The notes: generated by a model from the letters alone, not told the origin. A DNA stretch of 64,000 nucleotides from Candidatus Doudnabacteria bacterium (GCA_025450105.1 JANWIA010000022.1:5630-69629), one strand, 5' to 3'. Shown: positions 32,945 to 60,895, counted from the stretch's first letter. Program-made: numbers and translations.

Positions 32945-33122
32945 GTGTTTCCTTTGTCACGCAGCGGCCAGGACAAGCCACTCGTCGAATTAATTAAAGT
33001 TACTTTACCACATTTTTCCCTTTTTCGCAAATGTCGCACAACCAATACTTTTTTGCATTGTACGACAATGCTATAATTAATATATGAACTGGATCCTGAC
33101 CTCCGTCAGGATGACAATACTT

Positions 33123-40630: not shown

Positions 40631-41484
40631 TGGTCCGCGTCTACTATAATTTGGCCAAGCCTGGTCTTGTTTACGGCAACTGCCTCACCGGCATGGCCGG
40701 TTTTTTATTAGCCTCTCAGGCTCATGTCAATTTTCTGCTCTTGCTCGAAACCATTGCAGGACTTGGATTGGTCATGGCTTCGGCCTGTGTCCTCAATAAT
40801 GTTTATGACGCGGATATTGATTCCAAAATGGAGCGAACCAAAACCCGGGCCACGGTCACCGGTGAAATTTCCAAATTCAACGCATCGATTTACGGAATTT
40901 TGCTCGGCCTTGCCGGCTACTCATTACTTTATTTCTATACCAATCTTTTGACGGTTGGCGTTGCCGCAGTCGGGACCATTGTTTACCTGCTATTTTACTC
41001 TCCGTTCAAACGCCGTTCGACAATGGCCACGATTGTCGGTGGCCTTTCCGGCGCCACCCCGCCGGTAATCGGGTACTGTGCCGTTACTAATAATTTTGAT
41101 TTAGGTGCGCTGCTACTTTTCCTCATTTTATTTTTCTGGCAACTGCCGCACTTTTATGCTATCTCCATTTACCGGCTTGGTGATTATACCGCTGCGGCCG
41201 TGCCCGTCATGTCTGTAAAAAAAGGAATTCGAGTTACCAAATTTAATATTCTTGTTTGTGTGATTGGATTTATTGCCTCTACTATATCGCTCAAACTCTA
41301 CGGTTACATTGGTCTGGTTTCAATAATCATTGTAGGGATTGTCAGTTTGAATTGGCTCCGTCTTGCCTTAAAGGGTTTCAGCGCAGAAAATGATGTAAAG
41401 TGGGCAAGGAAAATGTTTTTCTTTTCCTTGATTGTCCTGCTAACTCTTTCGGCCATGCTTTCTCTAGACGCGCTACTGATTTAA
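40630..41484 (+). CDS. cyoE: Protoheme IX farnesyltransferase (heme O synthase), UbiA family
   Basis: UbiA-type Asp-rich motifs (NNVYDADID); 284 aa; overlaps cyoD stop. Confidence 0.85.
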   Translation: MVRVYYNLAKPGLVYGNCLTGMAGFLLASQAHVNFLLLLETIAGLGLVMASACVLNNVYDADIDSKMERTKTRATVTGEISKFNASIYGILLGLAGYSLLYFYTNLLTVGVAAVGTIVYLLFYSPFKRRSTMATIVGGLSGATPPVIGYCAVTNNFDLGALLLFLILFFWQLPHFYAISIYRLGDYTAAAVPVMSVKKGIRVTKFNILVCVIGFIASTISLKLYGYIGLVSIIIVGIVSLNWLRLALKGFSAENDVKWARKMFFFSLIVLLTLSAMLSLDALLI

Positions 41485-43447: not shown

Positions 43448-46400
43448 CTAAACCTTTAAGTCCTGGCTGACCCAGCCGTTGCCTGTGGTAAGTTCTTTTT
43501 GAAGGTGGCGAGGTTGTGGCACATCCCCGGATGTAGATGCATGCAGGTAGTACTTCCCTTTTGGAACCATCATAAAATATCGGCCGCGGAAATCCGACAC
43601 CGCAAAGGTCACGCGGTTGTTGGCGAGATCAGTCAAATAGATTGGGGCCAGGGCCATTGGCAAACCGGTGGCGCTGTTTCTGATGATGCCAAACGGTTTT
43701 GGCCGGATCTTAAGCAGGCGAGCAATGGCAATGAACACAAACAGGACGATCAATCCAAAACTGATGACATCCGGCTGGGCAATATAGCCGGCGACCGTAA
43801 GCGGAAACGCGGCCCAAAATGAGAAATTCGAAAAAGTGATCAAGGCTTTCCTAAACAAAGCCCGGGGCGAAGTTCTGGTTTTGGCAATTGGATCCATCGG
43901 TAAATCTAAATTGGAGCTTTGCTGTGGATTGACCGTAATCATGCCGCCCAAATATATGTCCCCGAATGGCATGTTGGCCATATCGGCAAAAGTTTTTTGG
44001 GTTGGGAATTTATATTTTGGGTGCTCGGCAAAAAATTGAATTTTCTGCTCCGATCCGGCCAGGCCTCGCGGCGAAATCAAAAATGCATACCGCCCATCCG
44101 GGCCGGCAATGGTTGATTCCAAAATTTTTAATCTTTCATTTAAGACATTAACATGGGCATGTGGAATCGGCTGCAAAGTTTTGGAATCAAAAACCACGCC
44201 CCAAGGGTTTCGTTTACGGCGCAACCCCAGCGCTTCCATCAAAGCCAAAATCCAATACTTAAAATAATTAACGCTGTTCAAACCGCTAAGCAAATCAATC
44301 AAAGCAGAACCGGTGGTAATCAACGGCGTGATCAAAAGCAAAAACGTTATAAACCTCAAACTCATCGTCCCACCCGGTACCATCTCCAAAATTTCCTGGG
44401 TCGATTCCTGGACTTGGTCCGGGACAAAACCTTGGGTGAAATCAAACGCCCCGCCAGAACCTTCATCATCTGTATCAACACTGCCCCCGCCATTTGGTCG
44501 GTCGATAGGCGGAGGTGGCGGAGTAATACTTGGCGTTTCCGGATCAGATGGTCCTGGAGGAGTCACCGGTGGCGGTGGCGGCGGATCTGGTAATGGTTCG
44601 TTGGTTTCGGTATCGAATCGTGATGGGCCGCCGGAAGAAGAGTTGTCCAACAAGACAGCCTGTTCCTCGTCAGTGTCATTTGCATAAACAAAAACGGTAT
44701 AAGTCCCTTCAACTGCTCCCGGCGGAATCACAACGGAAAATCCATGATCATCCGGATATCCAGTTACGTCATTAACATCCGGTCTTGGGTCATCGGCGAC
44801 AATAACAATCGGATCAGAGTCAGGAGAAGTCGGGTCTTCAAAATAAATTTCAATCGTTACCGGTGCATCCGGATCGTTTGGATCCACGGCCCAACCAGTG
44901 ATGACCGTGCCGCCATTTGTGCCATTCTCGTCAACGTGACCAATCGGATCGTCATTGCCTGGAGGGATAATTACTGGATCGTGGTCACAAATTACTGGCG
45001 GGGAAACATATAGGCTGTTGATGAACGCCCGGGTTGGCGTGACCAAATTACCGCTTTTGCCATTATTACCGATTAGATCAGCGTAGGCAGTTTGGAAACG
45101 GCGGACTGCATCACGGGTGTTGTCGCCGTAATACTCAACCTCGTGGCCCGGTGAACCAGCGCCACTTAGCGCGACCATGAATCCGTTATCGTTCAAAAAC
45201 CTCTGCAAATATACAACCTGCGGATGTGTTTGCCGATGCGAAATGTTTTCGGAAAATGAAATTTCCGGCGGACGCAACTGTATCGGCGGATACGACACAC
45301 AATCCGGTTCTGCAGGTGGAGGCGGCGGGATCACAACCGGCGGCGGCGGAGGTGGTGGTGGAGTTTCCGCTGCGGTCAGGACAATTGTATCCGACACAAC
45401 TTGCGACGAAGAATTTATATTTTTATAAAAACGAACATAGACAGTATAAGTTCCCGGCTCACAGGTAGATGTGAACTCACAAATGTCCCAGGATATAGTT
45501 TCCTCATAATCCATTTGCTCGTATGGTGACAACAATGAATGATCTGAGATCCTGATGTAGTTGGCATCCGGTCCGCCGGACAAAGTTAAAGTTACATTCC
45601 TGGAATTGGTTGTTGTGTCGCCAGAATTTATCGTCACCCTAAAGCCACCGTTAGGCTCCTGCATACCATTATTATTGTTTCCTCCCCCGCCCCCGTCTGC
45701 TGCGGCAGAAGTTGTGGCGGAATCAGTAACCGCTGAAGTTTCTGTTCCGTCGCCATTGCGGGCTTTCACGGAAAAATTATAAAGCGTGGATGGTGACAAC
45801 GAAGTAGACATCCACGATACACCGTCCGCGACCCAACCCGAATCTGTTGATGCTGTTGTGTTAGCGGCAAAAAATGCCGTACCGGCCGGGTTACTGTTGA
45901 CGTTCCAAGTTGCCGTAATTTGAGAGGATGAATCAACAGTTAATATTAAGGCGCTTGGCGGATTGGCCAAAGTATATGCGCTGCTATTGGCAGAGTTGGC
46001 AGTATTGCCTGCTAAATCTGTGACTGTTACAAAGAAAGTGTACTGGACATTAACGCTTAATCCATTGCTGGCCCACGACGTACCGGCTTGCGCTCCAGAA
46101 CTGGTCGCCGCGGTGGAGTTTTGAATATTATATGGTGCTGCTGCCAAACCAGATAAAGCATCCGAAGCACCGGCAACCGTTGCGGTTATCGATGATGTTG
46201 TAATTGTCCCTGTAGAAACTGTTCCTGCAGTTGGTGCGGCAGTATCAACCTTAAAGGCAATCGCGCCGCTATTGGCGGTCGAATAAGAAGATTCGGCAGC
46301 CGAATTATCAATGGCTTTTACTTGCCAATAGTAGCCGGAGCTGTCGGCCAAGGTTTGCCCGCCTGATCCTGTAGTATACGATCCACCGCCAGCCGCTTGG

Positions 46401-50596: not shown

Positions 50597-50983
50597 ATGA
50601 AACTTCTCGCGTTTTTCCTGCTCTTCGTTCTGAGCTTCACTTACCTCCTGTTGATCCTCATGGGTCGGCACACAAAGAAAGACGGAACAAATCTGGACCT
50701 GCACAAGGGACTGGCCACGTTCACGTGGATAATTGCCAGTATCTATATCCTGGCACTAGAAGCCCACTTCGCGATCGCCGGTGTTGCACGCACACGTGAT
50801 GGATTGTTCTTCGTCCACCTCTACATCTTTGCATTCCCCTGGGTTGCAAGCTATCTGGCAATCCTCGCCTGGCTGACAGGTTCCGGAGGTCGCAAAAGAT
50901 TCCATAGGTTCGCGGCTTACGGCAACGCTGTACTTTACCTCGGCATGGCCGTCACTGGCGGCCTACTCATCTATAGGTGGTAA
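50597..50983 (+). CDS. Hypothetical 4-TM membrane protein (high-GC patch, AGGAGG SD)
   Basis: ORF plus SD plus hydrophobic profile. Confidence 0.4.
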   Translation: MKLLAFFLLFVLSFTYLLLILMGRHTKKDGTNLDLHKGLATFTWIIASIYILALEAHFAIAGVARTRDGLFFVHLYIFAFPWVASYLAILAWLTGSGGRKRFHRFAAYGNAVLYLGMAVTGGLLIYRW

Positions 50984-50986
50984 ACA

Positions 50987-51481
50987 ATGCCAACGTTTCT
51001 AGTAGAAATCTGCAATGGCGTCAGGATTGAAACCACTTCAGATCCGATCCAGTGTTGCCGATCCGATGCAATCATTACCACTATCGACCGGAATCAGAAC
51101 TGGAGCACGCAAACCGACCACGCGATTCAAATGGTCGCAGGATACGGATTCCACTGTAAGATTCGAAACAAACGGCAAAGCATGGTCGACCTCCAAGCCT
51201 ACCTTGCCGAAGCACCGGGTAACAACCGAACCTTCACCAATGTAATCTTCGTAGTCGACCTAATGACGTCACCACTTCAGAAGGTCATTTACGCCGGCTT
51301 GGGGAAGGCAGACCAGGCAAGACTCAAAGTAGTCACAATACCGCGGTTAAGGGCAGACAGCAAAAAGATGCCCTTGCAAACTAAGTCCGCGGTTGAATCT
51401 CAACTTTCGTCGGGCGCGCTGGAGTATCTCTCCAAGAACAAAAAAACGAACCTGACTTCTATCAAATTCGTTTTCGACTGA
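50987..51481 (+). CDS. Hypothetical protein (high-GC patch, coupled to upstream membrane protein)
   Basis: ORF; 4-nt spacing from previous stop. Confidence 0.4.
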   Translation: MPTFLVEICNGVRIETTSDPIQCCRSDAIITTIDRNQNWSTQTDHAIQMVAGYGFHCKIRNKRQSMVDLQAYLAEAPGNNRTFTNVIFVVDLMTSPLQKVIYAGLGKADQARLKVVTIPRLRADSKKMPLQTKSAVESQLSSGALEYLSKNKKTNLTSIKFVFD

Positions 51482-51521
51482 CTCTTATGGACCCTAGAGT
51501 ATAAACAAGGGTCCTTTTTAT

Positions 51522-51959
51522 TTAGAAAAGTTTTTTGCCAGATGCAGACCAGCGGTTGTACAGATAATATGCGACGTAAAGATAAAGTAGTCCGACAATA
51601 ATGAATAAGGTTCGGTTGGAAGAAATGGACATGCCGATGTTGCGGCCGAACAATCCGGTGATCCCCAGATTGATACCCGAGATAACCATGATTGCAAACG
51701 CCGCGACGTCAAACGGTTTTTTGCTGGCAAACAATTTACGATGCTGTGACCATTCATATAATAAGTAACCGGATGCCAAACCGGAAATGATCCAGGATAA
51801 AACCAAAAGGGTTCTGGTTAATCCGGACGGAAACGGACCATAAGCGACCAGCGGTGGGATTCCTCCTATGAACAATGCCAATGCGGCAATGACCAAACGG
51901 GCTTCCGACCACAAAAAACTGAACTTTTCGATTTTGTTTCGTTGCATATGATTGAACAT
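51522..51959 (-). CDS. Hypothetical 4-TM membrane protein
   Basis: ORF plus hydrophobic profile. Confidence 0.4.
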   Translation of the reverse strand: MFNHMQRNKIEKFSFLWSEARLVIAALALFIGGIPPLVAYGPFPSGLTRTLLVLSWIISGLASGYLLYEWSQHRKLFASKKPFDVAAFAIMVISGINLGITGLFGRNIGMSISSNRTLFIIVGLLYLYVAYYLYNRWSASGKKLF

Positions 51960-52040
51960 TAATGCTTGCGTTTATTATAGCAAGAATTATTGATTTCAGT
52001 ATTTTAAATGCTATAATCAAATCGAATTGATAACAATTAT

Positions 52041-52904
52041 ATGAACCAAAACGATCAAATTTACGAGGAAGCGTTTGCGAGAAACAAAGGACTGATTAGT
52101 GATGAGGACCAGCAAAAATTAAAAAATGCCCGCGTGGCAATTGCCGGACTGGGTGCGGTTGGAGGCAGTTATGTCACAACCATGGCCCGTTTGGGCGTTG
52201 GTAAAATAAATATTGCGGATCTGGATATTTTTGAACGGGTTAATCGCAACCGCCAGGCCGGCGCTTTTGAATCGACTATTGGCCAGCCAAAAACATCAGT
52301 TATGGAAAAAATGGCCAAGGACATTTATCCGGGAATGGATGTAAGGATTTTTGATAAAGGAATTACACCGGAGAATATTGATGAATTTTTGGACGGTGTG
52401 GATGTCGTTTTAGACGGAATAGATTTTTTTCAATTTGATGCCCGACAAATGCTTTATCGAAAAGCCCGCGAAAGAAACCTTGCCGTGGTTGGTTCCGCCC
52501 CGCTGGGATTTGGGTCGAGCACAATAACCTTTGGCCCATCAGGCATTAGCTTCGATGAGTATTTTGATATCACTGATAAGCTGACGCCGGAAGAAAAACT
52601 TTTAAAATTCGGAATGGGCATGGGTCCTTCCCTATTGCAGCGTAGTTATTACCCTGTTAAAGTCGTAAATTTCAAGGACCACGCCGCACCATCGTCAATT
52701 CTTTCAATTGTTCTTGCCGCCAACCTCACCGGCACGCAAGCATTTAAAATTTTAACCGGCAAAGAATACACAACCGCACCAACTACAATCCATTTTGACC
52801 CTTATGTCCAACAATTACGAACTGTTGTACTAAAAAAAGGAAACGGAAGCTTTATTCAACGCCTAAAATTCTGGTACGTTAAGAAATATTTACTTTCCAA
52901 ATAA
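52041..52904 (+). CDS. ThiF/MoeB/HesA family E1-like adenylyltransferase
   Basis: Rossmann motif AGLGAVGGSYVTTMARLGVGKINIADLD. Confidence 0.75.
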   Translation: MNQNDQIYEEAFARNKGLISDEDQQKLKNARVAIAGLGAVGGSYVTTMARLGVGKINIADLDIFERVNRNRQAGAFESTIGQPKTSVMEKMAKDIYPGMDVRIFDKGITPENIDEFLDGVDVVLDGIDFFQFDARQMLYRKARERNLAVVGSAPLGFGSSTITFGPSGISFDEYFDITDKLTPEEKLLKFGMGMGPSLLQRSYYPVKVVNFKDHAAPSSILSIVLAANLTGTQAFKILTGKEYTTAPTTIHFDPYVQQLRTVVLKKGNGSFIQRLKFWYVKKYLLSK

Positions 52905-52948
52905 GAAAGATTGACGCTAACTGCCACAAATGATATATTCAACGGCAG

Positions 52949-53668
52949 TTGGAAGGAGGGTATAGAAACATCATGCAAAAAACAGCAACCTGGACATACG
53001 CAATCACCTGCTACCTCTATCGTGGACTTTCAGTCCTTATAGGAAGGGCTCCAAGCATTCGCGGCAGAGAGAACATCCCTGCGGGCGGTTGCATTGTCGT
53101 TGCCAACCACCGCAGTATCATGGATCCATGGTGCATCTCCTGGTGTTTCACCATGAGCAACGGCATCAAGTGGATGGCAAAAATGGAATCGGTTGACCCC
53201 CGCGACTTTCAAAGACCGGGAGCCGGCTGGATCCGAAACTTCTTTCTGCTGATTGCAGGATGGTTTTCCGCCCAGATCGTCCGCGGATGTGACGTACTGC
53301 TCGTTGATCGCGAAGGTAAAGACCAGGCCCTTAATCTCAAATCGCTTGCTAGAGCCTCCAGGCTCTTGGAAAAGGGTGGGATTGTGGGGATCTTTCCCGA
53401 AGGCGGGATAGACAAAAAGAAGGCCGAAGGGTTCTTCGAAGGGTTTATCTCGTTAGCCAAACGAACTGAAATGCCGATCGTCCCGATCTACATCGACGGG
53501 AAACGAATCGTTATTGGCAAGCCAATCACTTTCGACCTCAAGTGCCACGAACTCAACAACCGGGCACGACTGGCTGCCGATGTCATGAGCCTCATCGATT
53601 CACTCCGAACCGAAGACAACGAGCGCATCAAGCAACTCGTCGCCTCTTTTGCTGGCGCCGGGTATTAA
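52949..53668 (+). CDS. PlsC-family lysophospholipid/lyso-lipid acyltransferase
   Basis: HxxxxD motif (NHRSIMD) and FPEGG block. Confidence 0.75.
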   Translation: MEGGYRNIMQKTATWTYAITCYLYRGLSVLIGRAPSIRGRENIPAGGCIVVANHRSIMDPWCISWCFTMSNGIKWMAKMESVDPRDFQRPGAGWIRNFFLLIAGWFSAQIVRGCDVLLVDREGKDQALNLKSLARASRLLEKGGIVGIFPEGGIDKKKAEGFFEGFISLAKRTEMPIVPIYIDGKRIVIGKPITFDLKCHELNNRARLAADVMSLIDSLRTEDNERIKQLVASFAGAGY

Positions 53669-53718
53669 CAAATCAGCGCAGTCCACTGTAACAAGGACTG
53701 CGCTGTATTCTTTCTACT

Positions 53719-54294
53719 ATGTATATTTTAAAATCTTCGACAATCAATAACCTTGATAAGCCTCAACAACATACGGCAGGACAAGGACTCGCTAAGTTAG
53801 CATGTGCCACACTTGCCCAAACGAAACCATCGGAAGTGCAACTTTTTTATACAACGACTGGCCAACCTCATGCCAAAGTTAAAGACCGGACTTATTCGAT
53901 TTCTATAGCTCATACCAAAAACTTAGTTGCTGCGTTAGCCGCAACATACTCGAAACGAATTGGACTGGATGTAGAATATCCCCGCTCGTTCTCAAATAAA
54001 ATCCTTGCAGCCTTTTTAAACCAACCAGAAATAAAAATATTACGAGAATTATTTCCAAAAAACAAAAAATTGCGCGAAACCCTTGCCTGGTCCTGTAAAG
54101 AAGCATATCTTAAAGCAGCAGGCTTAGGTTTAAGGCAGCATCCTCTAAGTCTCAACATACAAATAAAAAACAAGACAAAATCTAAAATTACCGGAAAAAT
54201 TTTGGATACAAAAAAAGGTCGGGAAGCATTTATCCAGGCCAAATTCACTTCTAAACAAATTATTGCAATTTCATATTATGACACTACCAAATAA
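53719..54294 (+). CDS. 4-prime-phosphopantetheinyl transferase superfamily protein
   Basis: GLDVEY (GxDxE) and WSCKEAYLKAAG (W..KEA..K) motifs. Confidence 0.65.
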   Translation: MYILKSSTINNLDKPQQHTAGQGLAKLACATLAQTKPSEVQLFYTTTGQPHAKVKDRTYSISIAHTKNLVAALAATYSKRIGLDVEYPRSFSNKILAAFLNQPEIKILRELFPKNKKLRETLAWSCKEAYLKAAGLGLRQHPLSLNIQIKNKTKSKITGKILDTKKGREAFIQAKFTSKQIIAISYYDTTK

Positions 54295-54535
54295 CCCCAA
54301 GGATTTTGTTTACAATTCAATTCACAAGGTTACCGGCAAACCAGTCGATTCGATCCAGCCTAACGACCTTCTGACCAGTTTAGTCACCGATTCCATTCAA
54401 CTGTTCGAATTAATTCTGGAACTGGAAAACGCTTTTGCAATTGAACCGGATTACGATGAACTGGTAAAAATTCAAACCGTTCAGCAGGCTGTAGAATTCG
54501 TGGAAAAAATCTACGTAACTCAACCTACTCAATAA
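54278..54535 (+). CDS. Acyl carrier protein-like (start at MTLPNN)
   Basis: Phosphopantetheine attachment-like LVTDSIQLFELILELENAF (DSI/DSL serine). Confidence 0.6.
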   Translation: MTLPNNPKDFVYNSIHKVTGKPVDSIQPNDLLTSLVTDSIQLFELILELENAFAIEPDYDELVKIQTVQQAVEFVEKIYVTQPTQ

Positions 54536-55574
54536 ATTTTGGCGACTTGCGAACAGATGGCGGGCGGATTTCCGTTTTAGCATATCCAAGACGGACAAAA
54601 AATGTTATGACTTCGTCCTTTACCCCGAGTAGTTTGTAAACATTGCCGGTCACACGGTTGATTATAGACGCCTCCCAATTTGTAATACTTTCCGGAGAAT
54701 TTCCTCGTAATCGAGAATACAAAAATAGCATGCTCGACATTGGTTGCAGAGAAATATCATAGTCGGTTGCAGCTAACCAGACCGACTGCAAGGCCCGTCC
54801 GGTTTCGACATAACTTTCCGCCCAATTATTATGGATGACAAAATAGCCCAACGCCGGGCTTTTTTCGTATATGTGTCGGCGCATCAGGTAACTTGTATAT
54901 TCCAATCCGAACAAACGGAAAAATTTTGTGATCTTCCAACTCTTTAATATCCGCAATAAAAACTTCATCATCGGATTTCTGGTGATCGACCTAATGTGCA
55001 TTCCGTCTTGGGTCCGTTTGAATTCGTCATCGGTCCACCGAATATTGTCGTAAAAATACTTGTGGAGTTCCTGGTTGTCCAAAATCATTTTATCCCCGAC
55101 CGCCAGAAGATCGACAAGTTTTTTAACAAGGCTTCGGCTCTGGATCATTTCGAACCGGACAAAAGGAGGGCGCTGTCCCGCTTCTTGTATTGCCTGGTTC
55201 GCCCGTGCATCAATCCGGTGCTTCAAAAACGGCATGCGGTCAGTAAAACGTTTTTTGATTGATCGGATTGATTCCGGATCAGTCTTCGGCGCATCAGTAA
55301 ATTCAATTCGCGAAATGTGCTTGTAGTCTTTGATATCGGGAAAAACCTTAACCTTCGATGCATAACCTTCCACTGCCGCCAGACGGACTATGTTTTCGAT
55401 CAGTGCCCCGTGGCTGATATAGGTCGCATGCTGCTTAAAATCATACAAGGATGGAGTGGAAGAATCGTAGATGTCCACATAATTTTCCCCTAAACGAAAA
55501 GTCCACGGTTGTTGGTTATCTCCCGAAGGCGCGAAGACGGCATCTGCTAAAATTTTTCTGAAAATTTCCTGCAT
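54525..55574 (-). CDS. Nitroreductase-superfamily flavoprotein (two-lobed, SagB-like length)
   Basis: AVFAPSGDNQQPW N-terminal nitroreductase signature. Confidence 0.5.
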   Translation of the reverse strand: MQEIFRKILADAVFAPSGDNQQPWTFRLGENYVDIYDSSTPSLYDFKQHATYISHGALIENIVRLAAVEGYASKVKVFPDIKDYKHISRIEFTDAPKTDPESIRSIKKRFTDRMPFLKHRIDARANQAIQEAGQRPPFVRFEMIQSRSLVKKLVDLLAVGDKMILDNQELHKYFYDNIRWTDDEFKRTQDGMHIRSITRNPMMKFLLRILKSWKITKFFRLFGLEYTSYLMRRHIYEKSPALGYFVIHNNWAESYVETGRALQSVWLAATDYDISLQPMSSMLFLYSRLRGNSPESITNWEASIINRVTGNVYKLLGVKDEVITFFVRLGYAKTEIRPPSVRKSPKFIE

Positions 55575-55626
55575 TGAGTAGGTGGGATTAGTGGTATAAT
55601 TATAACATTATTTTTAAATTGCTCTT

Positions 55627-56244
55627 ATGTACCGATATAGCGTGGCTAAATCACCAACAGACAAACAAGGAGTTTTTGCCCTGATCCGAAAAATTTATGG
55701 AATTGAAGGATATTTAACCGGCAACGGGAGTGCTTTTGATAAATATTTGTTGTTGGAAACTTCCATGGTCTTTCGCGGACTGGTAAACAACAAATTATTC
55801 GGGACAATTTCCGTGGTGACAGATTTAGGACACGGTTTGCCCATGGATATTCTTTATAAAAAGGAACTTGAGGCCTTGCGTCAGCAAGGTAAACTCTTAG
55901 CAGAGGTCACGCAGTTTGCTGTTGACCATGACATCATAAAGCAGGAAGACCTTTTTTTTAATTCCCTAAAGCAACTGACTACCGACCTTCCATTGTTTAA
56001 ACTGGTTTTGGATTTTGCAGCGTTTAAAAATCTTGATTTTTTGTGCATAACAGTTAACCCCCGGCACGCCAAATTTTACCAATCCTTGGGGTTTGTTCAA
56101 TTTGGCGAACTTAAATATTATGAGTCCGTTAACAATGCACCGGCACTATTGTATGTTCTGGATTTGCATGAATTCAAAAATAAAAAATTGCCCGGAATTT
56201 TCAAAACATTGTCCGCGCAGCCTGACTTTAGTTTATTTACTTAA
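55627..56244 (+). CDS. Putative acyl-ACP-dependent N-acyltransferase (OlsB/FeeM-like, GNAT-related fold), paralog 1
   Basis: Roughly 60% identical to the 57734-58354 product; length and context; assignment is inferred. Confidence 0.4.
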   Translation: MYRYSVAKSPTDKQGVFALIRKIYGIEGYLTGNGSAFDKYLLLETSMVFRGLVNNKLFGTISVVTDLGHGLPMDILYKKELEALRQQGKLLAEVTQFAVDHDIIKQEDLFFNSLKQLTTDLPLFKLVLDFAAFKNLDFLCITVNPRHAKFYQSLGFVQFGELKYYESVNNAPALLYVLDLHEFKNKKLPGIFKTLSAQPDFSLFT

Positions 56245-56932
56245 GCTCGCTAAAAACGTGCTTGATGTGCTCGTAACAAACCTCGTAACCAGCATCATTT
56301 GGATGCGAGAGGTCGGTGAAAAAATACTTTTTCCTGTCGACAAGCAAAATGTTCGGGTCCTGATCGATCAACAAACAACCGTTACTGGCCGCGACCTTTT
56401 CAAAAACTTCATGGACGCGGGCGGCGCGATAGTTTAAAAAATCCCGTTCCAAAAAGGAGTATAAGGGCATATCACCGGTTTTGCTTGGAACCCAAAAAAC
56501 AATTTGTTTCGATACTGGCTTGAGGTACTCAACTAATTCCTCAAGATTTTTTTTGATCTTTTTCAAACTGGAAAAAGTTACGATATCAATTCCCCCAACC
56601 ATCAAGACCGCCAAATCATAGTGACCTAAATGCTGTTGTTTAAGGTGTTTAATTAACCCCCCAATGTTCAACCGGCTCACAGAATGATTTGTAATATCCG
56701 CAGTTGGCATGTCTCGGCCTAAAATTCCGACCAGGTTCCTTGTCGGGTCGGTAGCGCCAGTGCCGACTAAAAAACTATCGCCGGCAAATAAAATATGGCA
56801 ACTCGGATTTTCTGGATGCTGGGAATAAGGTACAAGCGTTTTGCCCATTAATTTTTTTGGCGAGGCGTAAAAGACAATTCGACTGACTTCGAATAGTACC
56901 AGGCCTGCCAAAATTAGCAAAAAATAAATCAT
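56237..56932 (-). CDS. SGNH/GDSL hydrolase with N-terminal TM, paralog 1
   Basis: GDS block (HILFAGDSFLVGTGA) and DxxH (HPNDAGYE). Confidence 0.65.
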   Translation of the reverse strand: MIYFLLILAGLVLFEVSRIVFYASPKKLMGKTLVPYSQHPENPSCHILFAGDSFLVGTGATDPTRNLVGILGRDMPTADITNHSVSRLNIGGLIKHLKQQHLGHYDLAVLMVGGIDIVTFSSLKKIKKNLEELVEYLKPVSKQIVFWVPSKTGDMPLYSFLERDFLNYRAARVHEVFEKVAASNGCLLIDQDPNILLVDRKKYFFTDLSHPNDAGYEVCYEHIKHVFSELK

Positions 56933-56935
56933 AAT

Positions 56936-57661
56936 TTAATAGACCGGTTCTTTAACCTTGACCATGGCTTCACGCAAATGGACATACATTAACCTATAGC
57001 CTTCGTCGTTTGGGTGGTGTTTGTCCTTTGCATAATAACGGTTGCGGTCGCGTAAAAGCAAGTCACTATGCTCTTCCAAAAAATCGATGCCAAATTCCTT
57101 TGCAACGTGTTTAAAGACCCTGCGGACTTTTCGGGAACGGATATTCAAAATCCCAGAAAACGGCCAGTGATAAAGCGGAACCAGTCCAGTGTGACCAGGT
57201 ATAACTAAAATTACTTTTTTACAGTGCCGCATGAGAATGGTTAAGAGCGAACTCAAATTTAATTCCAGGCGCGACAACGGCGTGTGGTTTATAATATCCA
57301 TGCCCCCGACCATGACGATTGCAAGATTGTATCGTCCGAATTCTTCTTTATTTAGCAAATGTTTGACCAACTTGCCGGTGGTTATGCCGTTCTTAGAAAA
57401 ATTCGAAATGTCTAATAACGGAAAATCCTTTGCCAACAAACCGGTAAAAGTTGTTTCTGGCACCGAAGCCCCAACTCCCACAGCATAACTATCCCCAACC
57501 ACCAATATACTGTCTGTGGCATAGGCAGGATGATGCGAAAACGGCACTGGGAAGTGAGAAATGGCCCGGGTAATAATCATTAAATAGGCCAATCGAAACA
57601 TTTCGACCAGCACTATCGGGGCAATTATCCAGAGTAAAACAATTTGTGTTTCAAGTGACAT
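56936..57661 (-). CDS. SGNH/GDSL hydrolase with N-terminal TM, paralog 2
   Basis: ILVVGDSYAVGVGAS and HPNDEGYR. Confidence 0.65.
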   Translation of the reverse strand: MSLETQIVLLWIIAPIVLVEMFRLAYLMIITRAISHFPVPFSHHPAYATDSILVVGDSYAVGVGASVPETTFTGLLAKDFPLLDISNFSKNGITTGKLVKHLLNKEEFGRYNLAIVMVGGMDIINHTPLSRLELNLSSLLTILMRHCKKVILVIPGHTGLVPLYHWPFSGILNIRSRKVRRVFKHVAKEFGIDFLEEHSDLLLRDRNRYYAKDKHHPNDEGYRLMYVHLREAMVKVKEPVY

Positions 57662-57680
57662 TTTTTGATTAAAATATTTC

Positions 57681-57723
57681 TTGCATCTATTCTTAATTCA
57701 CATTAGTATTATTATAACATTTA
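57681..57723 (+). promoter_or_regulatory. Candidate sigma70-like promoter (TTGCAT-17-TAGTAT) followed by TATTATAACATT motif; the same motif lies upstream of the paralog at 55595-55610
   Basis: Hexamers with 17-bp spacing, 25 nt upstream of ATG; motif shared between both paralog upstream regions. Confidence 0.35.
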
Positions 57724-57733
57724 TTGATTAAAC

Positions 57734-58354
57734 ATGACGTATAGATACGGAATTGCACGCACAGAATCGGAAAAACGGGAAGCGGTTTCTTTAATCCGAA
57801 AAATTTTCAATCATGTTGGATATTTAAACGGTGACCAAAATGATTTCGAAAAATACTTACTTTTGGATACATCAAGAATTTTTAGCGCCTTTGTAAACGA
57901 AAAGTTATTTGGCACCATTTCTGTTGTTCCTGATTTAAATCAAGATCTGCCGATGGACATCCTTTACGGCCAAGAACTACAACCGTTTCGGCAGCAAGGG
58001 AAGCGTTTGGCCGAAGCCACCCAATTTGCTGTTGATCATGGAAAAGTTAAAGAGGAAGATCCAACTTTTAACTCGTTAAAACAACTCTCCGTTAATCTTC
58101 CACTTTTTAAGCTGATTTTAGATTTTGCCGCGTTCGCCAAGATTGATTGCATTTGTATTACCGTTAATCCTAAACATTCAAAGTTTTATGAGACAATAGG
58201 TTTTGTCCAAATCGGCGGATTAAAATATTATGCTCTCGTAAACAATGCGCCGGCCCTGGCATACATCCTCGACCTTGCTCAATTTAGAAATAGCAAATTG
58301 CCTGGAATGTTAAAATTGCTATCCGAACAGCCTGACCTTAGCTTGTTTACTTAA
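57734..58354 (+). CDS. Putative N-acyltransferase (OlsB/FeeM-like), paralog 2
   Basis: Paralog of 55627-56244. Confidence 0.4.
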   Translation: MTYRYGIARTESEKREAVSLIRKIFNHVGYLNGDQNDFEKYLLLDTSRIFSAFVNEKLFGTISVVPDLNQDLPMDILYGQELQPFRQQGKRLAEATQFAVDHGKVKEEDPTFNSLKQLSVNLPLFKLILDFAAFAKIDCICITVNPKHSKFYETIGFVQIGGLKYYALVNNAPALAYILDLAQFRNSKLPGMLKLLSEQPDLSLFT

Positions 58355-58366
58355 CGATAATTAATT

Positions 58367-58990
58367 ATGACTACTAAAACAAATTACATACTTCGCCCGG
58401 CAATCGCAAAACCACTAATTCATTGGTTTTACGACACTTATTGCAGCGCGGGAAATTTAGGAAAAAAATTTAAACAAAAAATTATTAAACTTGCTGGCAT
58501 AAAAAATGGCGATACTGTTGTGGATATTGGTTGTGGCACCGGAGTTTTATTAATTGAAGCTCAAAAGCAATTTCCGCAGGCAAAATTTATCGGATTTGAC
58601 CCGGAACAAGAAGCCAGCACAATCGCTAGGAAAAGAATGAGAAGATTAAGCATCCCAATTGTAGTTTTGGAAGATTGGGCCGAAGAACTTTGGATTGCAG
58701 ATAATTCAGTAGATGTAGCACTTTCTACTTTAGTGCTTCACCACTTGCCAACTGATGCAAAAATCGAATCCCTTAAAGAAATGCACAGAATTCTTAAACC
58801 GGGCGGAAAAGTTATTATTTCCGATTTCGGGCCTGGCGGTTGGGGCCTGTTTCTGTTTGAGCACAGGGGTTACCTAAAAGATCACAGGCTAGGATTAATT
58901 CCCGAATTTCTCAAAAAATCAGGTTTTAAAAACGTTTCTGTCATCCATAAACATTCTAAAAAAATCGATATTATTCAAGGAGAAAAATAA
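58367..58990 (+). CDS. Class I SAM-dependent methyltransferase
   Basis: VVDIGCGTG motif I, LKPGGKVII post-II region. Confidence 0.8.
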   Translation: MTTKTNYILRPAIAKPLIHWFYDTYCSAGNLGKKFKQKIIKLAGIKNGDTVVDIGCGTGVLLIEAQKQFPQAKFIGFDPEQEASTIARKRMRRLSIPIVVLEDWAEELWIADNSVDVALSTLVLHHLPTDAKIESLKEMHRILKPGGKVIISDFGPGGWGLFLFEHRGYLKDHRLGLIPEFLKKSGFKNVSVIHKHSKKIDIIQGEK

Positions 58991-59008
58991 ATCGCCCGGT
59001 TGGGCGAT

Positions 59009-60337
59009 TTATAATTTTCGCAAGCTTATAAAAAATGTGCTCCCTTTATTTTCTTCCGATGTAAACCAGGTTCTACCGCCATGGGATTCTATCACTTGCT
59101 TAATGTAATACAGACCGAGGCCGGTTCCCTTAACCGAACTTAACCTGGCATTACTGGCGCGGTAAAACCCACCAAATATTTTTTCCTGATCCGCCTTCGG
59201 GATACCAATACCTTGGTCAGCCACAGAAATTTGAACACTGCCGTTGATTTTTTTGACGATAATTTTCACCTGGCCTTTTGGTTTGGAATATTTGAGGGCA
59301 TTGGAAATTATATTATTAATGACACGCTTAATTTTAACCTTGTCCCCTTTTACAGAAGCAGCTGTAACGGAGCTGACCAGTTCCACACCTCGATTACGCG
59401 CTTCCAGTTCAAAATTTTTGGCCGCATCGTCGACAACGCCGCCGAGATCGAAAACTTCCCAAGGATTAACTTTTTTGGCATTGACGGAATAAAGGTCCAG
59501 TAAGTCGTTAACAATCCCAATCATATTTTCGCTACTGTTCCGGATCAGCGCCAGCACGTCGTTTTGTTTCTTATCCAACTTGCCCGAAGTTCCCTTGATT
59601 AAAGTTTGCGCGGCCCAGGAAATGCCATTCAATGGCGAGCGGATTTCGTGCGACGCCAAGGATACCATTTCGGCATTCATGGTCATACGGACGATTTCTT
59701 TTTTTCGTGAGAACCAGTAGATTATCAAGATCACTAAAAGGAAAAGTGTGATCAGCGCTGACAACGCGGTGGCCAACCAAACAGCGCGCTGATGGCTTTC
59801 TGTTGAAATATCCATGCCTACAACGGCAACGACCTCATCAGTTGATGGGTCAGTGATAACACTCAATGCGGAAATCCAAGTTCCCCAACGGTCTGTGTAA
59901 TCACTTTCCAGTAACGATTGTTTATTTTGGAACATCGCGCGCAATTGCGGACTGGCCTCAAAATAAACATCGCCCGGTGCTGAATAATCTTCAGAGTCTG
60001 GATCCTCCGAATCTAAATAGAAAAAGATTTGACCGTTATGTTGCCCAAGCGCGTAAATAAATCTCGTGTCATAGTTTTGCTGTTTGGCTTTTGTGAACTG
60101 CTCCTTGAGCATCTGATAAGTCGGGTTCTCTAAATCGTCCTCCGATCCTGTCAGCGCCTTAATATCAGCAGGCTTAACAAACTGAGCAATGGTGTTGGCG
60201 CGGGTCAACAACGAATTCTTATCCGACGCATCAACGGTATAGTAAACAAAAACAGTGGCTGCTGTTCCAATAATGAACACCAGTCCAATCAATAAACCCA
60301 AATATTCTGAATTGTATTTGCCAAAGTTTTGTTTCAT
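59009..60337 (-). CDS. Sensor histidine kinase (TM, extracytoplasmic sensor, TM, HisKA, HATPase_c); no response regulator in window
   Basis: H-box SHEIRSPLNGI, N/G1/G2 boxes. Confidence 0.85.
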   Translation of the reverse strand: MKQNFGKYNSEYLGLLIGLVFIIGTAATVFVYYTVDASDKNSLLTRANTIAQFVKPADIKALTGSEDDLENPTYQMLKEQFTKAKQQNYDTRFIYALGQHNGQIFFYLDSEDPDSEDYSAPGDVYFEASPQLRAMFQNKQSLLESDYTDRWGTWISALSVITDPSTDEVVAVVGMDISTESHQRAVWLATALSALITLFLLVILIIYWFSRKKEIVRMTMNAEMVSLASHEIRSPLNGISWAAQTLIKGTSGKLDKKQNDVLALIRNSSENMIGIVNDLLDLYSVNAKKVNPWEVFDLGGVVDDAAKNFELEARNRGVELVSSVTAASVKGDKVKIKRVINNIISNALKYSKPKGQVKIIVKKINGSVQISVADQGIGIPKADQEKIFGGFYRASNARLSSVKGTGLGLYYIKQVIESHGGRTWFTSEENKGSTFFISLRKL

Positions 60338-60508
60338 TCCTACCTTTTCTATACCATAATCATATCAGAAAAAAACTCTCACTGAAATCTGAGAAATTTC
60401 ACATTTTAGGATGATTCCGTTACTATGGAGTTGCAGGGTTCCTTGGTCTGTGTTTTGTTGTCAGTTGGAAAAGGACTTTGGGACCCTGCCTATCCAATCG
60501 GAGGATTG

Positions 60509-60895
60509 ATGAAACGATACAGCGACGTTGACTTGTTAATGCAAGGATCGTACCAAAAACTGGAGTTGCTGGTTGCACTTGAAACCGAGCTCAACCAAAT
60601 ATCTTGGCCGAGCCTCCTCAAATTCTTCAACATTAGTTTTAAGCTTCGATCGAGTGGCATTTGCGTGATCAACTGCATATTCCACCAGGATCGAAGACCC
60701 TCACTGTTTCTGAAACCGAATTCTGGCTGGTACAAATGCTACGGCTGCCAGGAGGAAGGAAGCAAACTCGAGTTTCTTCAACACATGTTGTTCGACGAGG
60801 CAGAGGTCTCAAATAACATGCTCGAAGAATCACTGGAAATTGTCGATCGCATCCCTCGGATGCCCATCGAAGGTCAGCTCTCCCTGCCAATATAA
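60509..60895 (+). CDS. Standalone CHC2-type (DnaG-primase-like) zinc-finger protein, 129 aa, high GC, GGAGGA SD
   Basis: CIFHQDRRPSLFLKPNSGWYKCYGCQEEGSKLEFLQHM matches the C-x-H-x17-C-x2-C primase zinc-finger pattern. Confidence 0.5.
   Translation: MKRYSDVDLLMQGSYQKLELLVALETELNQISWPSLLKFFNISFKLRSSGICVINCIFHQDRRPSLFLKPNSGWYKCYGCQEEGSKLEFLQHMLFDEAEVSNNMLEESLEIVDRIPRMPIEGQLSLPI

Follow-up and report, generated by a model that had tools for sequence, protein, structure and literature searches.

A Predicted Acyl-Oxazolone-Type Lipid Gene Cluster with a Private Acyl Carrier Protein in a Probable Patescibacterium

Ten genes at positions 52041-58990 of the window, the 64-kb stretch of DNA analyzed here, form a cluster that we read, with moderate confidence, as making an N-acyl-amino-acid-derived lipid via an acyl-oxazolone route. 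The host is probably an ultra-small bacterium of the Patescibacteria. The initial annotation had counted nine genes in this interval; all are present as long open reading frames (ORFs), but the count is ten. Its guesses at the domains of the cluster genes were each matched in Pfam, and every domain call reported here lies above the Pfam gathering score.

51990..52017, + strand: promoter-like site (TTGATT and a TG-extended TATAAT, 16 nt apart), lying 24 nt upstream of where ThiF starts
52041-52904, + strand: ThiF-family adenylating enzyme, 287 aa
52949 (TTG; probably 52973)-53668, + strand: PlsC-family acyltransferase
53719-54294, + strand: phosphopantetheinyl transferase (PPTase), Sfp/HetI-type, 191 aa
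54263-54535, + strand: acyl carrier protein (ACP), 90 aa from a TTG start
54525-55574, - strand: nitroreductase-superfamily flavoprotein, 349 aa
55627-56244, + strand: NAS1, FeeM-like, 205 aa
56237-56932, - strand: SGNH a hydrolase, 231 aa
56936-57661, - strand: SGNH b hydrolase, 241 aa
57734-58354, + strand: NAS2, FeeM-like, 206 aa
58367-58990, + strand: SAM methyltransferase, 207 aa
58987..59012, no strand: GC-rich hairpin, 11-bp stem
59009-60337, - strand: histidine kinase, flanking, after the methyltransferase

The promoter-like site, which agrees with the consensus at 10 of 12 positions plus the TG in a consensus scan (a sequence match alone), likely marks the left boundary of the cluster. 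At the right, the hairpin found by a terminator scan where the methyltransferase and kinase genes converge is likely a bidirectional terminator and cluster boundary. The sensor kinase had earlier been listed as following the cluster; it is not co-conserved with the cluster genes in relatives and lies outside. Within the cluster, a promoter-like motif upstream of NAS2 is common to the NAS1 upstream region, and the PlsC reading frame, open from the TTG at 52949, likely begins at the ATG at 52973, behind a GGAGG. A look-up in a public protein collection returned exact sequences for 9 of the 9 ORFs submitted (the eight cluster genes other than PlsC and ACP, and a flanking DEAD-box helicase).

By sequence, NAS1 and NAS2 are FeeM-family N-acyl amino acid synthases. 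Both match Pfam PF21926 (7.2e-35 and 7.9e-30, respectively), the nearest solved relative of both is FeeM (PDB 2G0B; 3.7e-31 over residues 8-190 for NAS1), and their 63% identity (BLASTP 3e-98) agrees with their earlier description as paralogs. The pair of ∼205-aa proteins had also been called "OlsB/FeeM-like", of which the FeeM half stands and the OlsB half does not, as a Pfam search of the two gave no PF13444 (OlsB) match at E <= 0.1. The concern that they might lack a GNAT/OlsB-like fold is answered by the FeeM-family matches in Pfam and to PDB 2G0B. In the NAS1 motif NPRHAKFY, the His and Phe with which FeeM touches the carrier protein and the Ppant arm are retained, and the conservation of these residues (His145 and Phe148 in FeeM) in the NAS paralogs is consistent with a private carrier protein for NAS, as the initial annotation had proposed. 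The ACP of the cluster matches Pfam PP-binding (1.2e-7) and scores under the cut-offs of the NCBIfam ACP models, and is thus divergent; its attachment serine is Ser44 in TDSIQLFEL, which holds the DSI motif. The PPTase matches Pfam ACPS (5e-12) and NCBIfam HetI (1.6e-16) and carries the motifs GLDVE and WSCKEAYLK. In related loci, PPTase and ACP invariably co-occur.

The ThiF protein is predicted to be an N-acyl-amino-acid cyclodehydratase of the OxzB-ThiF-domain/TyzB type. It matches Pfam ThiF (1.8e-39) and scores 331 bits against NCBIfam NF006077 (cut-off 266) and 298 bits against the ThiF portion of NF011424, the model for ThiF-NTR fusions. The NF006077 cut-off is also passed by the ThiFs of Massilia (kyonggic-acid-type) and planctomycete (stieleriacine-type) NAS-ThiF-NTR operons and by the ThiF domains of Colwelliaceae ThiF-NTR fusions, to which the window protein is 42-46% identical (42% for the fusion from a Colwellia MAG). 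It has a GxGxxG at residue 36 and the invariant D125/D128, and its sequence contains zero cysteines and no Zn-binding CxxC motif. The AF2 model (pLDDT 90) has an E1/ThiF fold. The best PDB match by sequence is the cyclodehydratase TcdA (1.9e-14), and a structure search with the model ranks E. coli ThiF first, so that the fold cannot tell these ThiF families apart.

The protein at 54525-55574 is a flavin-dependent oxidase of the monomeric double-NTR fold, Acg/FDO type. It matches the NCBIfam Rv1355c (TrzS) family (1.6e-44, model positions 374-704), the NF011424 fusion model (3.8e-43), and the Acg family (2.6e-40), with scores under family cut-offs that are set for full-length fusion proteins. 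Foldseek with the AF2 model (pLDDT 93) places 2YMV, an Acg homolog, at the top (TM 0.71, E 1e-14), and the remaining matches are all half-size NTRs. Along its whole length the protein is collinear with the C-terminal part (one half) of the Colwellia ThiF-NTR fusion; its identity to relatives beyond the closest one is only about 23-30%.

The other genes encode lipid-handling and tailoring candidates. The PlsC-family protein matches Pfam PF01553 (1.7e-18) and PDB 5KYM PlsC (2.8e-4) and has the HX4D (H54-D59) and FPEG (149) motifs. The SGNH hydrolases match Pfam (SGNH a, Lipase_GDSL_2, 5.8e-14, with GDS at 51 and DxxH at 207; SGNH b, 5.4e-17); as had been suggested, they are paralogs (35% identity, BLASTP 2e-53) and look membrane-anchored, each beginning with a hydrophobic helix. 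SGNH a belongs to a small family (770 representatives among 1.84 billion proteins), and its 3′ end overlaps that of NAS1 by 8 nt; a convergent overlap with a NAS gene is kept in loci L001 and L003; tandem SGNH pairs also occur in L014 and L170. The protein at 58367-58990 is, on its Pfam matches (Methyltransf_25, 3e-21; Ubie_methyltran, 2.7e-12) and its VVDIGCGTG motif, a class I SAM-dependent methyltransferase, UbiE/COQ5-like.

Among 170 related loci, the oxidase lies near ThiF in 104 and a NAS lies near ThiF in 68, and there are 27 ThiF-NTR and two NAS-ThiF gene fusions; NCBIfam NF011425 holds NAS, ThiF, and NTR in one 989-position profile. The triad is also present in the Massilia and planctomycete loci, with FeeM-family NAS genes. 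The genes are co-conserved in relatives: at least eight further low-GC loci, independent of one another and with unrelated flanking genes, carry this set, and the grouping is not due to chance. In 11 loci, we find a low-GC Patescibacteria-type extension of a private ACP and an Sfp-type PPTase, which usually adds a PlsC-type acyltransferase, an SGNH or alpha/beta hydrolase, a DedA protein, and a methyltransferase (the last in six of the 11); now and then a MacB exporter joins them.

Protein family membership, catalytic motifs, co-conservation, and gene fusions suggested to us the following route. The Sfp-type PPTase would turn the private ACP into its holo form, an acyl chain would be delivered to the ACP before the NAS step, and the FeeM-type NAS1 and NAS2 would move the acyl group onto the alpha-amino group of an amino acid, which by analogy is probably aromatic; each paralog may have its own preference for amino acid or chain length. 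The flavin oxidase would desaturate the C-alpha/C-beta bond with O2, which belongs to the biology of this organism given the quinol oxidase encoded in the 64-kb window. The cysteine-free ThiF would adenylate the carboxylate with ATP, and the amide oxygen would then close a 5(4H)-oxazolone ring. Product tailoring, ring opening, or acyl supply may fall to the PlsC-type O-acyltransferase, the methyltransferase, and the pair of SGNH hydrolases; the earlier proposal that lipases provide scavenged acyl chains for the carrier is speculative. The end product would be an acyl-oxazolone or a ring-opened N-acyl-dehydro-amino acid, probably membrane-associated. Two observations weigh against this route: genes for an acyl-ACP synthetase or a fatty acid synthase were not seen in the 64-kb window, and at least one related cluster that is otherwise complete, L170, lacks the oxidase, so that the core kept in Patescibacteria may serve for something other than unsaturated oxazolones. 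We infer the substrates, the order of steps, the product, and what PlsC, SGNH, and methyltransferase do; the link to OxzA/B and TyzA/B/C runs via family models, PDB entries, and the loci of related genera.

Of the alternatives, a two-step membrane aminolipid fares best, though we consider it unlikely. Following OlsB/OlsA or GlsB/GlsA logic, NAS would form a lyso-aminolipid from (3-hydroxy)acyl-ACP and PlsC would add a second chain in ester linkage, giving a bulk membrane lipid to a host unable to make phospholipids, with ThiF, oxidase, and methyltransferase decorating the head group. The general two-step scheme for aminolipids pairs an N-acyltransferase with an O-acyltransferase of the PlsC type (PMC11631085), which the earlier reading of this pair in OlsA/OlsB terms fits. 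A PF01553 protein with HX4D stands beside NAS, ACP, and PPTase in nine of the 11 Patescibacteria-type loci, and DedA/VTT proteins (8/11) and MacB/HlyD exporters (4/11) suggest a lipid moved across or out of the membrane. However, the NAS proteins are of the FeeM family and not OlsB, the PlsC-family protein reaches none of the OlsA- or OlsF-specific NCBIfam cut-offs (24.7 bits against OlsF, cut-off 620), and PlsC is absent from the nearest relative (L001/L002). Supplying a 3-hydroxyacyl donor would require fatty acid synthesis, for which the 64-kb window showed no synthase gene; no gene of the set is more constant than ThiF, which would be odd for a step that merely decorates.

Less probable still is a carboxylate-activation relay, in which ThiF would make an N-acyl-amino-acid adenylate or saturated azlactone, the holo-ACP thiol would capture it, and PlsC would hand the N-acyl-aminoacyl group on to a hydroxyl acceptor, for example a lysolipid that has been scavenged. 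The SGNH enzymes would supply this acceptor or the fatty acids. The constant core of the Patescibacteria-type loci (ThiF, NAS, ACP, PPTase, PlsC, and hydrolase) agrees with such a relay, as does L170, which is complete but for the oxidase. In L107/L108, a single 900-aa protein with AMP-binding, carrier, and PlsC domains sits beside ThiF and two NAS genes and shows a carrier-to-PlsC hand-off in such a neighborhood. The relay is drawn purely from gene content, though, and the ACP is already explained by FeeM itself using acyl-ACP. To our knowledge, no ThiF-family enzyme loads a phosphopantetheine thiol.

ThiF-like proteins and nitroreductase-family dehydrogenases co-occur in azole-forming RiPP systems, as the initial annotation remarked, and here a ThiF that docks or adenylates and a dehydrogenase that oxidizes azolines could act on a ribosomal peptide. 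We regard such TOMM-like modification as very improbable: no YcaO was found within the cluster or elsewhere among the window's annotated ORFs, the intergenic gaps (50-81 bp) are too short for a precursor peptide gene, the ThiF protein is missing the N-terminal peptide clamp of ∼100 aa (it aligns to MccB from MccB residue 108-111 on), and the oxidase is not McbC-type. The least credible reading is an E1-like defense module, or sulfur-carrier or cofactor chemistry in which a ThiS/MoaD-like protein is activated in the manner of ThiF/MoeB. It is suggested by a likeness of generic E1 Rossmann kind to ThiF, MoeB, and CBASS Cap2. Against it stand the absence of cysteines and CxxC, the lack of a nearby ThiS/MoaD-like gene, PADLOC matches that cover only the Rossmann core (residues ∼20-130) and no E2 domain, and scores far under cut-off for all NCBIfam ThiF and MoeB equivalog models.

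Several known systems resemble the cluster. The Fee cluster (FeeM N-acyl tyrosine synthase, carrier FeeL) likewise has an ACP gene within it; we know of no ThiF or nitroreductase-type partner there, and its downstream chemistry, enol esters and enamides, is unlike that of the window. OlsB/OlsA, GlsB/GlsA, and OlsF also pair a GNAT/AHL-synthase-like N-acyltransferase with a PF01553 HX4D O-acyltransferase, but the window NAS has no PF13444 match, the cluster gives no sign of a 3-hydroxyacyl substrate, and those pathways have nothing that corresponds to ThiF or the oxidase. By ATP-dependent cyclodehydration, TcdA (tRNA t6A cyclodehydratase) turns the carboxylate of an N-acylated amino acid into an oxazolone-type ring (PMC12596934), and, like the window ThiF, it lacks Zn-binding cysteines; it differs in its substrate, a tRNA nucleoside, and in its separate NCBIfam family (window ThiF, 66 bits against a TcdA cut-off of 304).

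The claim that no described pathway includes ThiF-like and nitroreductase-like partners has to be dropped: the triad is that of the published acyl-oxazolone systems OxzAB, TyzABC, and TrzAS and of the stieleriacine and kyonggic acid clusters. The TOMM/YcaO comparison is not needed. OxzAB, described in 2021 by de Rond, Asay, and Moore from Pseudoalteromonas rubra and other Proteobacteria, joins an N-acyltransferase with a ThiF-type ATP-dependent cyclase and a nitroreductase-superfamily oxidase (10.1101/2020.06.11.147165). The window ThiF falls in NF006077, the same family as the ThiF domain of ThiF-NTR fusions. In contrast to OxzAB, the window has ThiF and oxidase as separate genes on opposite strands, NAS proteins close to the ACP-dependent FeeM with private ACP and PPTase, additional PlsC, SGNH, and methyltransferase genes, and a probable Patescibacterium rather than a proteobacterium as host.

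As in TyzA/TyzB/TyzC of Mycobacterium tuberculosis (Rv2336, Rv2338c, Rv2337c; 2023), the layout is split, with the ThiF cyclase and a flavin-dependent oxidase of ∼350 aa each standing alone next to the acyltransferase; TyzA has a FeeM-like fold (PMC10404671). In TrzA/TrzS of the same species (Rv1356c/Rv1355c; 2025), the nearest solved structure to the TrzS oxidase domain is Acg, 2YMV (PMC12856293), as it is for the window oxidase model; the sequence likeness to TrzS is seen via the Rv1355c family model. The Tyz and Trz clusters lack ACP, PPTase, PlsC, and SGNH genes and adjoin mmpL9, whereas related Patescibacteria loci have MacB/HlyD or DedA genes. Assays of OxzA, TyzA, and TrzA used acyl-CoA, not acyl-ACP (10.1101/2020.06.11.147165; PMC10404671; PMC12856293).

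The stieleriacine, kyonggic acid, and thalassotalic acid clusters of Planctomycetota and Proteobacteria combine NasY, ThiF, and nitroreductase with or without a methyltransferase; what has been isolated from them is N-acyl dehydrotyrosines with the ring opened, and the part played by ThiF is still called enigmatic (PMC12479983). They share with the window one to four NAS paralogs and ThiF- and nitroreductase-family genes, and the Stieleria neptunia NAS-ThiF-NTR cluster shares a UbiE-like methyltransferase as well (PMC12479983), but none has a private ACP or PPTase, PlsC, or SGNH. The NAS, ThiF, and oxidase triad is the known part of the cluster, and the part that differs is the low-GC Patescibacteria-type extension with its private ACP and lipid-handling enzymes.

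Between 52041 and 58990 the ORF calls give ten closely packed genes, one more than the nine counted in the initial annotation, followed by a convergent histidine kinase gene. The domain guesses made for these genes from the sequence alone were accurate, each lying above the Pfam gathering score. The genes and flanking sites are as follows.

Genes and sites of the cluster, with Pfam matches and intact motifs
51990-52017, promoter-like site upstream of the ThiF gene
52041-52904, + strand, ThiF enzyme (1.8e-39); GxGxxG intact
52949-53668, + strand, PlsC-type acyltransferase (PF01553, 1.7e-18); HX4D (HRSIMD) and FPEG intact
53719-54294, + strand, PPTase of the ACPS type (5e-12); GLDVE and WSCKEAYLK intact
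54263-54535, + strand, ACP (PP-binding, 1.2e-7); Ser44 of DSI intact
54525-55574, - strand, oxidase (nitroreductase, 1.8e-8)
55627-56244, + strand, N-acyl amino acid synthase NAS1 (FeeM, PF21926, 7e-35)
56237-56932, - strand, SGNH hydrolase a (one Lipase_GDSL_2 match); GDS and DxxH intact
56936-57661, - strand, SGNH hydrolase b (one Lipase_GDSL_2 match); GDS and DxxH intact
57734-58354, + strand, N-acyl amino acid synthase NAS2 (FeeM, PF21926, 8e-30)
58367-58990, + strand, class I methyltransferase; VVDIGCGTG intact
58987-59012, strong hairpin between the methyltransferase and kinase genes
59009-60337, - strand, histidine kinase

The paralogy proposed for the NAS and SGNH pairs is confirmed, at 63% and 35% identity, respectively. 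The eight cluster ORFs that were looked up (all but PlsC and ACP) occur in the public protein collection as exact sequences and are singletons at 90% identity. Rfam and tRNA scans of the cluster region gave no matches. Composition does not mark the cluster out as a foreign island, as its GC content of 0.41-0.46 compares with a window range of 0.40-0.50. The PlsC-type and PPTase genes are separated by a perfect hairpin with an 11-bp stem (CAGCGCAGTCC...GGACTGCGCTG) at 53674-53705 and a T-rich tract behind it, inside what otherwise appears to be a single operon, and a second promoter-like site (52911-52939) is found ahead of the PlsC gene.

The two proteins of about 205 aa had been described as OlsB/FeeM-like, and only the FeeM part of that description stands. 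NAS1 and NAS2 score 120.5 and 104.2 bits on the FeeM family model PF21926 (cut-off 27), and the paralogs align with the sequence of the FeeM crystal structure 2G0B at 3.7e-31 over residues 8-190. Neither matches PF13444 (Acetyltransf_5, the OlsB family) at E <= 0.1, and their sole NCBIfam match is a NAS-ThiF-NTR fusion model, where NTR denotes the nitroreductase-superfamily flavin oxidase. His145 and Phe148 of FeeM have been implicated in contact with the carrier protein and phosphopantetheine (PMC11685415). Both are kept here, the FeeM motif NPKHDTFY aligning with NPRHAKFY in NAS1 and NPKHSKFY in NAS2; the numbering of the PDB chain is two off from that of the paper, and the residues were identified by the single H-x-x-F of the motif. 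The ACP and PPTase genes are 1-2 kb from the NAS genes. A FeeM-like fold has also been described for TyzA of the M. tuberculosis system (PMC10404671). The cluster places a FeeM/AHL-synthase-like N-acyltransferase, in two copies, beside the ThiF enzyme and the oxidase. Two motifs, GTAT(A/T)ATTATAACAT and AAATTTC(C/T)TGCAT, precede both NAS genes (55575-55626 and 57662-57733). The second is the start of the opposite-strand oxidase gene upstream of NAS1 and is noncoding upstream of NAS2, and the arrangement looks like the relic of a duplication that took in the 5' end of the oxidase gene, the promoter, and the NAS gene.

The oxidase has the features of a monomeric, nitroreductase-superfamily flavin-dependent oxidase of about 340 aa with an Acg-like fold: it is 349 aa long and matches the Acg family at 2.6e-40. 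It also aligns with NF005901 ("Rv1355c family") at 1.6e-44 over model positions 374-704 and is collinear over its full length with the C-terminal half of a Colwellia ThiF-NTR fusion. The protein diverges quickly, with the nearest relative 47% identical and the remainder under 30%. The top Foldseek match of its AF2 model (pLDDT 93) is 2YMV, the Acg homolog of M. smegmatis (TM 0.71, E 1e-14). This is the only full-length structural match, the others being half-size dimeric nitroreductases, and the same nearest solved structure was reported for the oxidase domain of TrzS by its authors (PMC12856293).

The ThiF enzyme scores 331 bits on NCBIfam NF006077 (cut-off 266). That cut-off is also passed by the Colwellia and Pseudocolwellia ThiF-NTR fusions, and by two stand-alone ThiF proteins, one from a Massilia NAS-ThiF-NTR operon and one from a planctomycete locus in which three NAS genes occur. 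Identity to homologs in Proteobacteria and Planctomycetota is 42-46%; for the 674-aa fusion from a Colwellia MAG, a 281-residue alignment with its ThiF domain gives 42%. Further homologs bear the names Yanofskybacteria, Moraniibacteriota, Paceibacterota, and Saccharibacteria, and these names suggest a Patescibacterium as the probable source of the window. The absence of cysteine among the 287 residues of the ThiF enzyme excludes Zn-site, thioester, and persulfide chemistry and is in keeping with an enzyme that adenylates directly and then lets the ring close intramolecularly. The AF2 model (pLDDT 90) has an ordinary E1/ThiF fold, and Foldseek against the PDB returned ThiF, AclA, MoeB, and PaaA all at TM ∼0.7, a comparison that does not discriminate between these families. 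By sequence, the best PDB match is TcdA; this cyclodehydratase, itself a ThiF-family member, has been reported to build an oxazolone-type ring on t6A (PMC12596934).

Curated fusion models tie the three enzymes together. The window ThiF and NTR match the two halves of the 679-position ThiF-NTR model NF011424 with 298 and 147 bits, and both align with NF005901. Different parts of the 989-position NAS-ThiF-NTR model NF011425 are matched by the two NAS proteins, the ThiF enzyme, and the oxidase. These matches indicate that the NAS, ThiF, and NTR functions are known as fused proteins.

We scored 170 related loci with profile HMMs made from the cluster proteins, taking proximity as within 12 kb of a ThiF homolog. 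The oxidase is near ThiF in at least 104 of the 170 loci and a FeeM-like NAS in at least 68, both lower bounds because many loci are short contigs. Fusions join ThiF to NTR in 27 loci and NAS to ThiF in 2, so that the three functions are linked genomically, fusions included. A genome scan with a 7-sequence alignment contributed at least 80 loci and is biased towards Betaproteobacteria; the frequencies are those of the sample. Eleven low-GC sources (0.35-0.48) have a common extended gene set, which we call the Patescibacteria type: the window, L001/L002, L003 with L089/L090, L005, L012, L014, L106, and L170. Named members are from Yanofskybacteria, Moraniibacteriota, and Saccharibacteria.

Occurrence of cluster genes in the 11 Patescibacteria-type sources
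ThiF, NAS, ACP, and PPTase: 11/11
PF01553 acyltransferase: 9/11
Hydrolase, SGNH (7) or alpha/beta (2): 9/11
DedA/VTT protein: 8/11
Oxidase: 6/11
Methyltransferase: 6/11
MacB/FtsX permease (3 with an HlyD-type adaptor): 4/11
DHODH-like flavoenzyme: 3/11

The flanks are different in each lineage (ribosomal protein operons, PriA/def/fmt, glycoside hydrolases), and the gene set thus travels as a unit. The neighborhood conservation in relatives proposed as a check in the initial annotation is thus observed. L001 and L003 share with the window the convergent NAS/SGNH pair and its 8-9-nt overlap. For SGNH a, a word-indexed search gave no homolog besides the query itself, and an exhaustive search found the family to be small, with 770 representatives among 1.84 billion proteins. 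One distant homolog from the exhaustive search (31% identity) sits in the Patescibacteria-type cluster of L170; another, in L169, lies outside such a cluster, among PAP2 and diacylglycerol-kinase genes. A complete cluster can lack the oxidase, as in at least L170, whose ThiF, with 166 bits on NF006077, is divergent; the other oxidase-free loci stop at contig edges and count neither way.

Two neighboring features were considered and set aside. The histidine kinase is near ThiF homologs in few loci and in none of the Patescibacteria type, which argues against a role as cluster regulator, and the small membrane proteins encoded upstream of ThiF (50597-51959), considered as further cluster members, lack homologs beside every related cluster. 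In the window, the cluster is without a DedA gene; a DedA/VTT-domain gene 30 kb away (22176-22934, - strand) gives no match to an HMM built from the cluster-linked DedA genes. The DHODH-like flavoenzyme (L005, 12638-13726; L012, 18219-19343; L106, 1516-2679) occurs in clusters that also have the MacB/FtsX permease, adjoins the NAS gene in L005 and L012, and may act as a second redox step in tailoring. The PEP-CTERM/exosortase loci of Thalassotalea castellviae (L007), with an Acetyltransf_5/FeeM-like acyltransferase and an EpsH exosortase, and of an Omnitrophica MAG (L008), with five PEP-CTERM proteins and an MMPL transporter, also contain ThiF homologs, which share 44-46% identity with the window ThiF; neither locus showed an oxidase.

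The best-supported reading, which we regard as probable, is that the cluster makes an N-acyl-amino-acid-derived lipid of the acyl-oxazolone type. The ACP would be activated by the PPTase, and the FeeM-type synthases would N-acylate an amino acid from acyl-ACP. The oxidase would then put in the 2,3-double bond, and the ThiF enzyme would adenylate the carboxylate to close the oxazolone ring. The methyltransferase, PlsC-type enzyme, and SGNH hydrolases may act in product tailoring or in feeding the pathway. By analogy, an aromatic amino acid is the probable substrate, since all characterized systems use Tyr, Phe, or Trp. An O2-dependent step is plausible in this organism, given that the window contains an O2-consuming, cyo-like heme-copper quinol oxidase operon (36808-41484, + strand) in the order subunit II (COX_ARM motif), 653-aa subunit I, subunit III, and a UbiA/CyoE-type prenyltransferase.

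A gene for acyl loading of the ACP was found neither in the cluster nor among the annotated ORFs of the 64-kb window. Patescibacteria have been reported to lack lipid biosynthesis, and no mechanism of lipid uptake or breakdown has been identified for them (PMC11665869). In L107 (5581-8280) and L108 (12297-14996, - strand), a 900-aa protein fuses AMP-binding, weak PP-binding (carrier), and PlsC-type domains, and its immediate neighbors are a ThiF homolog and two NAS genes of the FeeM-like kind. This fusion shows how the loading gap can be filled elsewhere, and it ties the carrier to the PlsC-type enzyme. Together, the loading gap, the fusion, and the oxidase-free L170 leave room for other schemes. 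The strongest of these is a two-step aminolipid pathway, which we consider unlikely. As in OlsB/OlsA, a PF01553 O-acyltransferase with an HX4D motif adjoins the N-acyltransferase in the window cluster. Both PF01553 and HX4D are generic to all LPLAT enzymes and are not specific to OlsA. The OlsA/OlsB logic initially proposed is a fair analogy for the pairing of N- and O-acyltransferases and fails as a claim of OlsB membership, given the lack of a PF13444 match.

A broader proposal, which we also consider unlikely, is that the Patescibacteria core (ThiF, FeeM-type synthase, ACP, PPTase, PlsC-type enzyme, membrane-anchored SGNH hydrolase, and DedA, sometimes without the oxidase) turns scavenged host acyl chains or lysolipids into a lineage-specific, amino-acid-containing membrane lipid and is not a pathway to a signaling metabolite. 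Either a ThiF-activated N-acyl amino acid (azlactone or adenylate) or acyl chains would pass to the carrier and on to the PlsC-type enzyme. If true, this would bear on membrane acquisition and remodeling in ultra-small bacteria that are lipid auxotrophs. A relay from ThiF to carrier to PlsC, for which the same three observations leave room, is very unlikely. The loading gap and the oxidase-free L170 leave the identification of the core enzymes untouched.

The remaining candidates were rejected. Sulfur-carrier activation of the ThiF/MoeB kind is contradicted by the absence of cysteines, by the lack of a small beta-grasp ThiS/MoaD partner gene nearby, and by scores of 56-89 bits on the ThiF/MoeB equivalogs against cut-offs of 150-650. 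A RiPP/TOMM system is argued against by the absence of a YcaO, correctly noted at the outset and confirmed among the window ORFs annotated with Pfam, by a ThiF with no peptide-clamp domain, by an oxidase of the wrong type, and by intergenic gaps of 50-81 bp that leave no space for a small precursor ORF. For CBASS Cap2 E1-E2 defense, the PADLOC matches span only residues ∼20-130 of the ThiF enzyme, set against models 430-710 positions long, and include no E2 domain; among the remaining cluster proteins there were no defense-specific PADLOC matches, the methyltransferase giving only generic methyltransferase-domain matches.

Several other features of the window were recorded. A predicted surface protein of 1845 aa (43448-48985, - strand) has an N-terminal signal-like helix, C-terminal membrane helices, long Thr/Ser/Gly-rich repeats, poly-proline linkers, and one peptidoglycan-binding domain match. 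A 758-aa PAS-PAS-GGDEF-EAL protein (644-2920, - strand) points to cyclic-di-GMP signaling in a small-genome organism. An Mrr-type restriction endonuclease (29189-29755, - strand), a tyrosine recombinase (33084-34082, + strand), and a 156-aa ORF with only the CHC2 zinc finger of DnaG primase (60425-60895, + strand) may be remnants of mobile DNA in the vicinity of the cluster.

The core chemistry, from N-acyl amino acid through desaturation to ATP-dependent oxazolone closure, is already described, and no new enzyme class is therefore proposed. The value of the cluster lies in where it occurs and in the genes that accompany it. A conserved cluster with its own carrier, PPTase, LPLAT-type acyltransferase, lipase-like hydrolases, DedA, and sometimes exporters offers a testable handle on how Patescibacteria deal with acyl chains. 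It extends the range of oxazolone-type clusters past the Proteobacteria, Actinomycetota, and Planctomycetota of the literature, and retention of the pathway in a minimal-genome organism argues for a basic function, at the membrane or the host interface.

The initial annotation had stated that no described pathway includes ThiF-like and nitroreductase-like partners. This proved incorrect, as the triad of NAS, ThiF, and NTR is that of OxzAB, TyzABC, TrzAS, and the stieleriacine-type clusters, and with the triad described in the literature no YcaO is needed. In Pseudoalteromonas rubra, OxzA is an N-acyltransferase and OxzB an "oxazolone synthetase" made of a ThiF and a nitroreductase domain (bioRxiv 10.1101/2020.06.11.147165). 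TyzA/TyzB/TyzC of M. tuberculosis form a split system that has been reconstituted, in which desaturation of N-acyl-Tyr uses O2 and falls to the nitroreductase-superfamily flavin-dependent oxidase, and ATP-dependent cyclization falls to the ThiF homolog (PMC10404671). TrzA/TrzS (Rv1356c/Rv1355c) lead to tryptazolones (PMC12856293). The clusters for stieleriacine, kyonggic acid, and thalassotalic acid contain one to four NasY genes together with a ThiF-family and a nitroreductase-family gene, and the cluster of one Stieleria species includes a UbiE-like methyltransferase (PMC12479983). An acyl-oxazolone pathway is expected to end in a 4-alkylidene-5(4H)-oxazolone or in an N-acyl-2,3-dehydro-amino acid, with both ATP and O2 required. 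We tie the cluster to the characterized proteins by way of curated family models, PDB entries, and the loci of related genera, from which we infer that the window ThiF probably belongs to the same clade as TyzB and the ThiF domain of OxzB. The Colwellia fusion locus L066 was rejected as a clean oxzAB analogue, the gene upstream being a sugar epimerase and not OxzA-like. The biosynthetic cluster in the window is thus real and co-conserved, and its core pathway was already in the literature of 2021-2025; what is new is the host lineage and the Patescibacteria-specific extension, with its private ACP and PPTase, LPLAT-type acyltransferase, SGNH hydrolases, and DedA or exporter.
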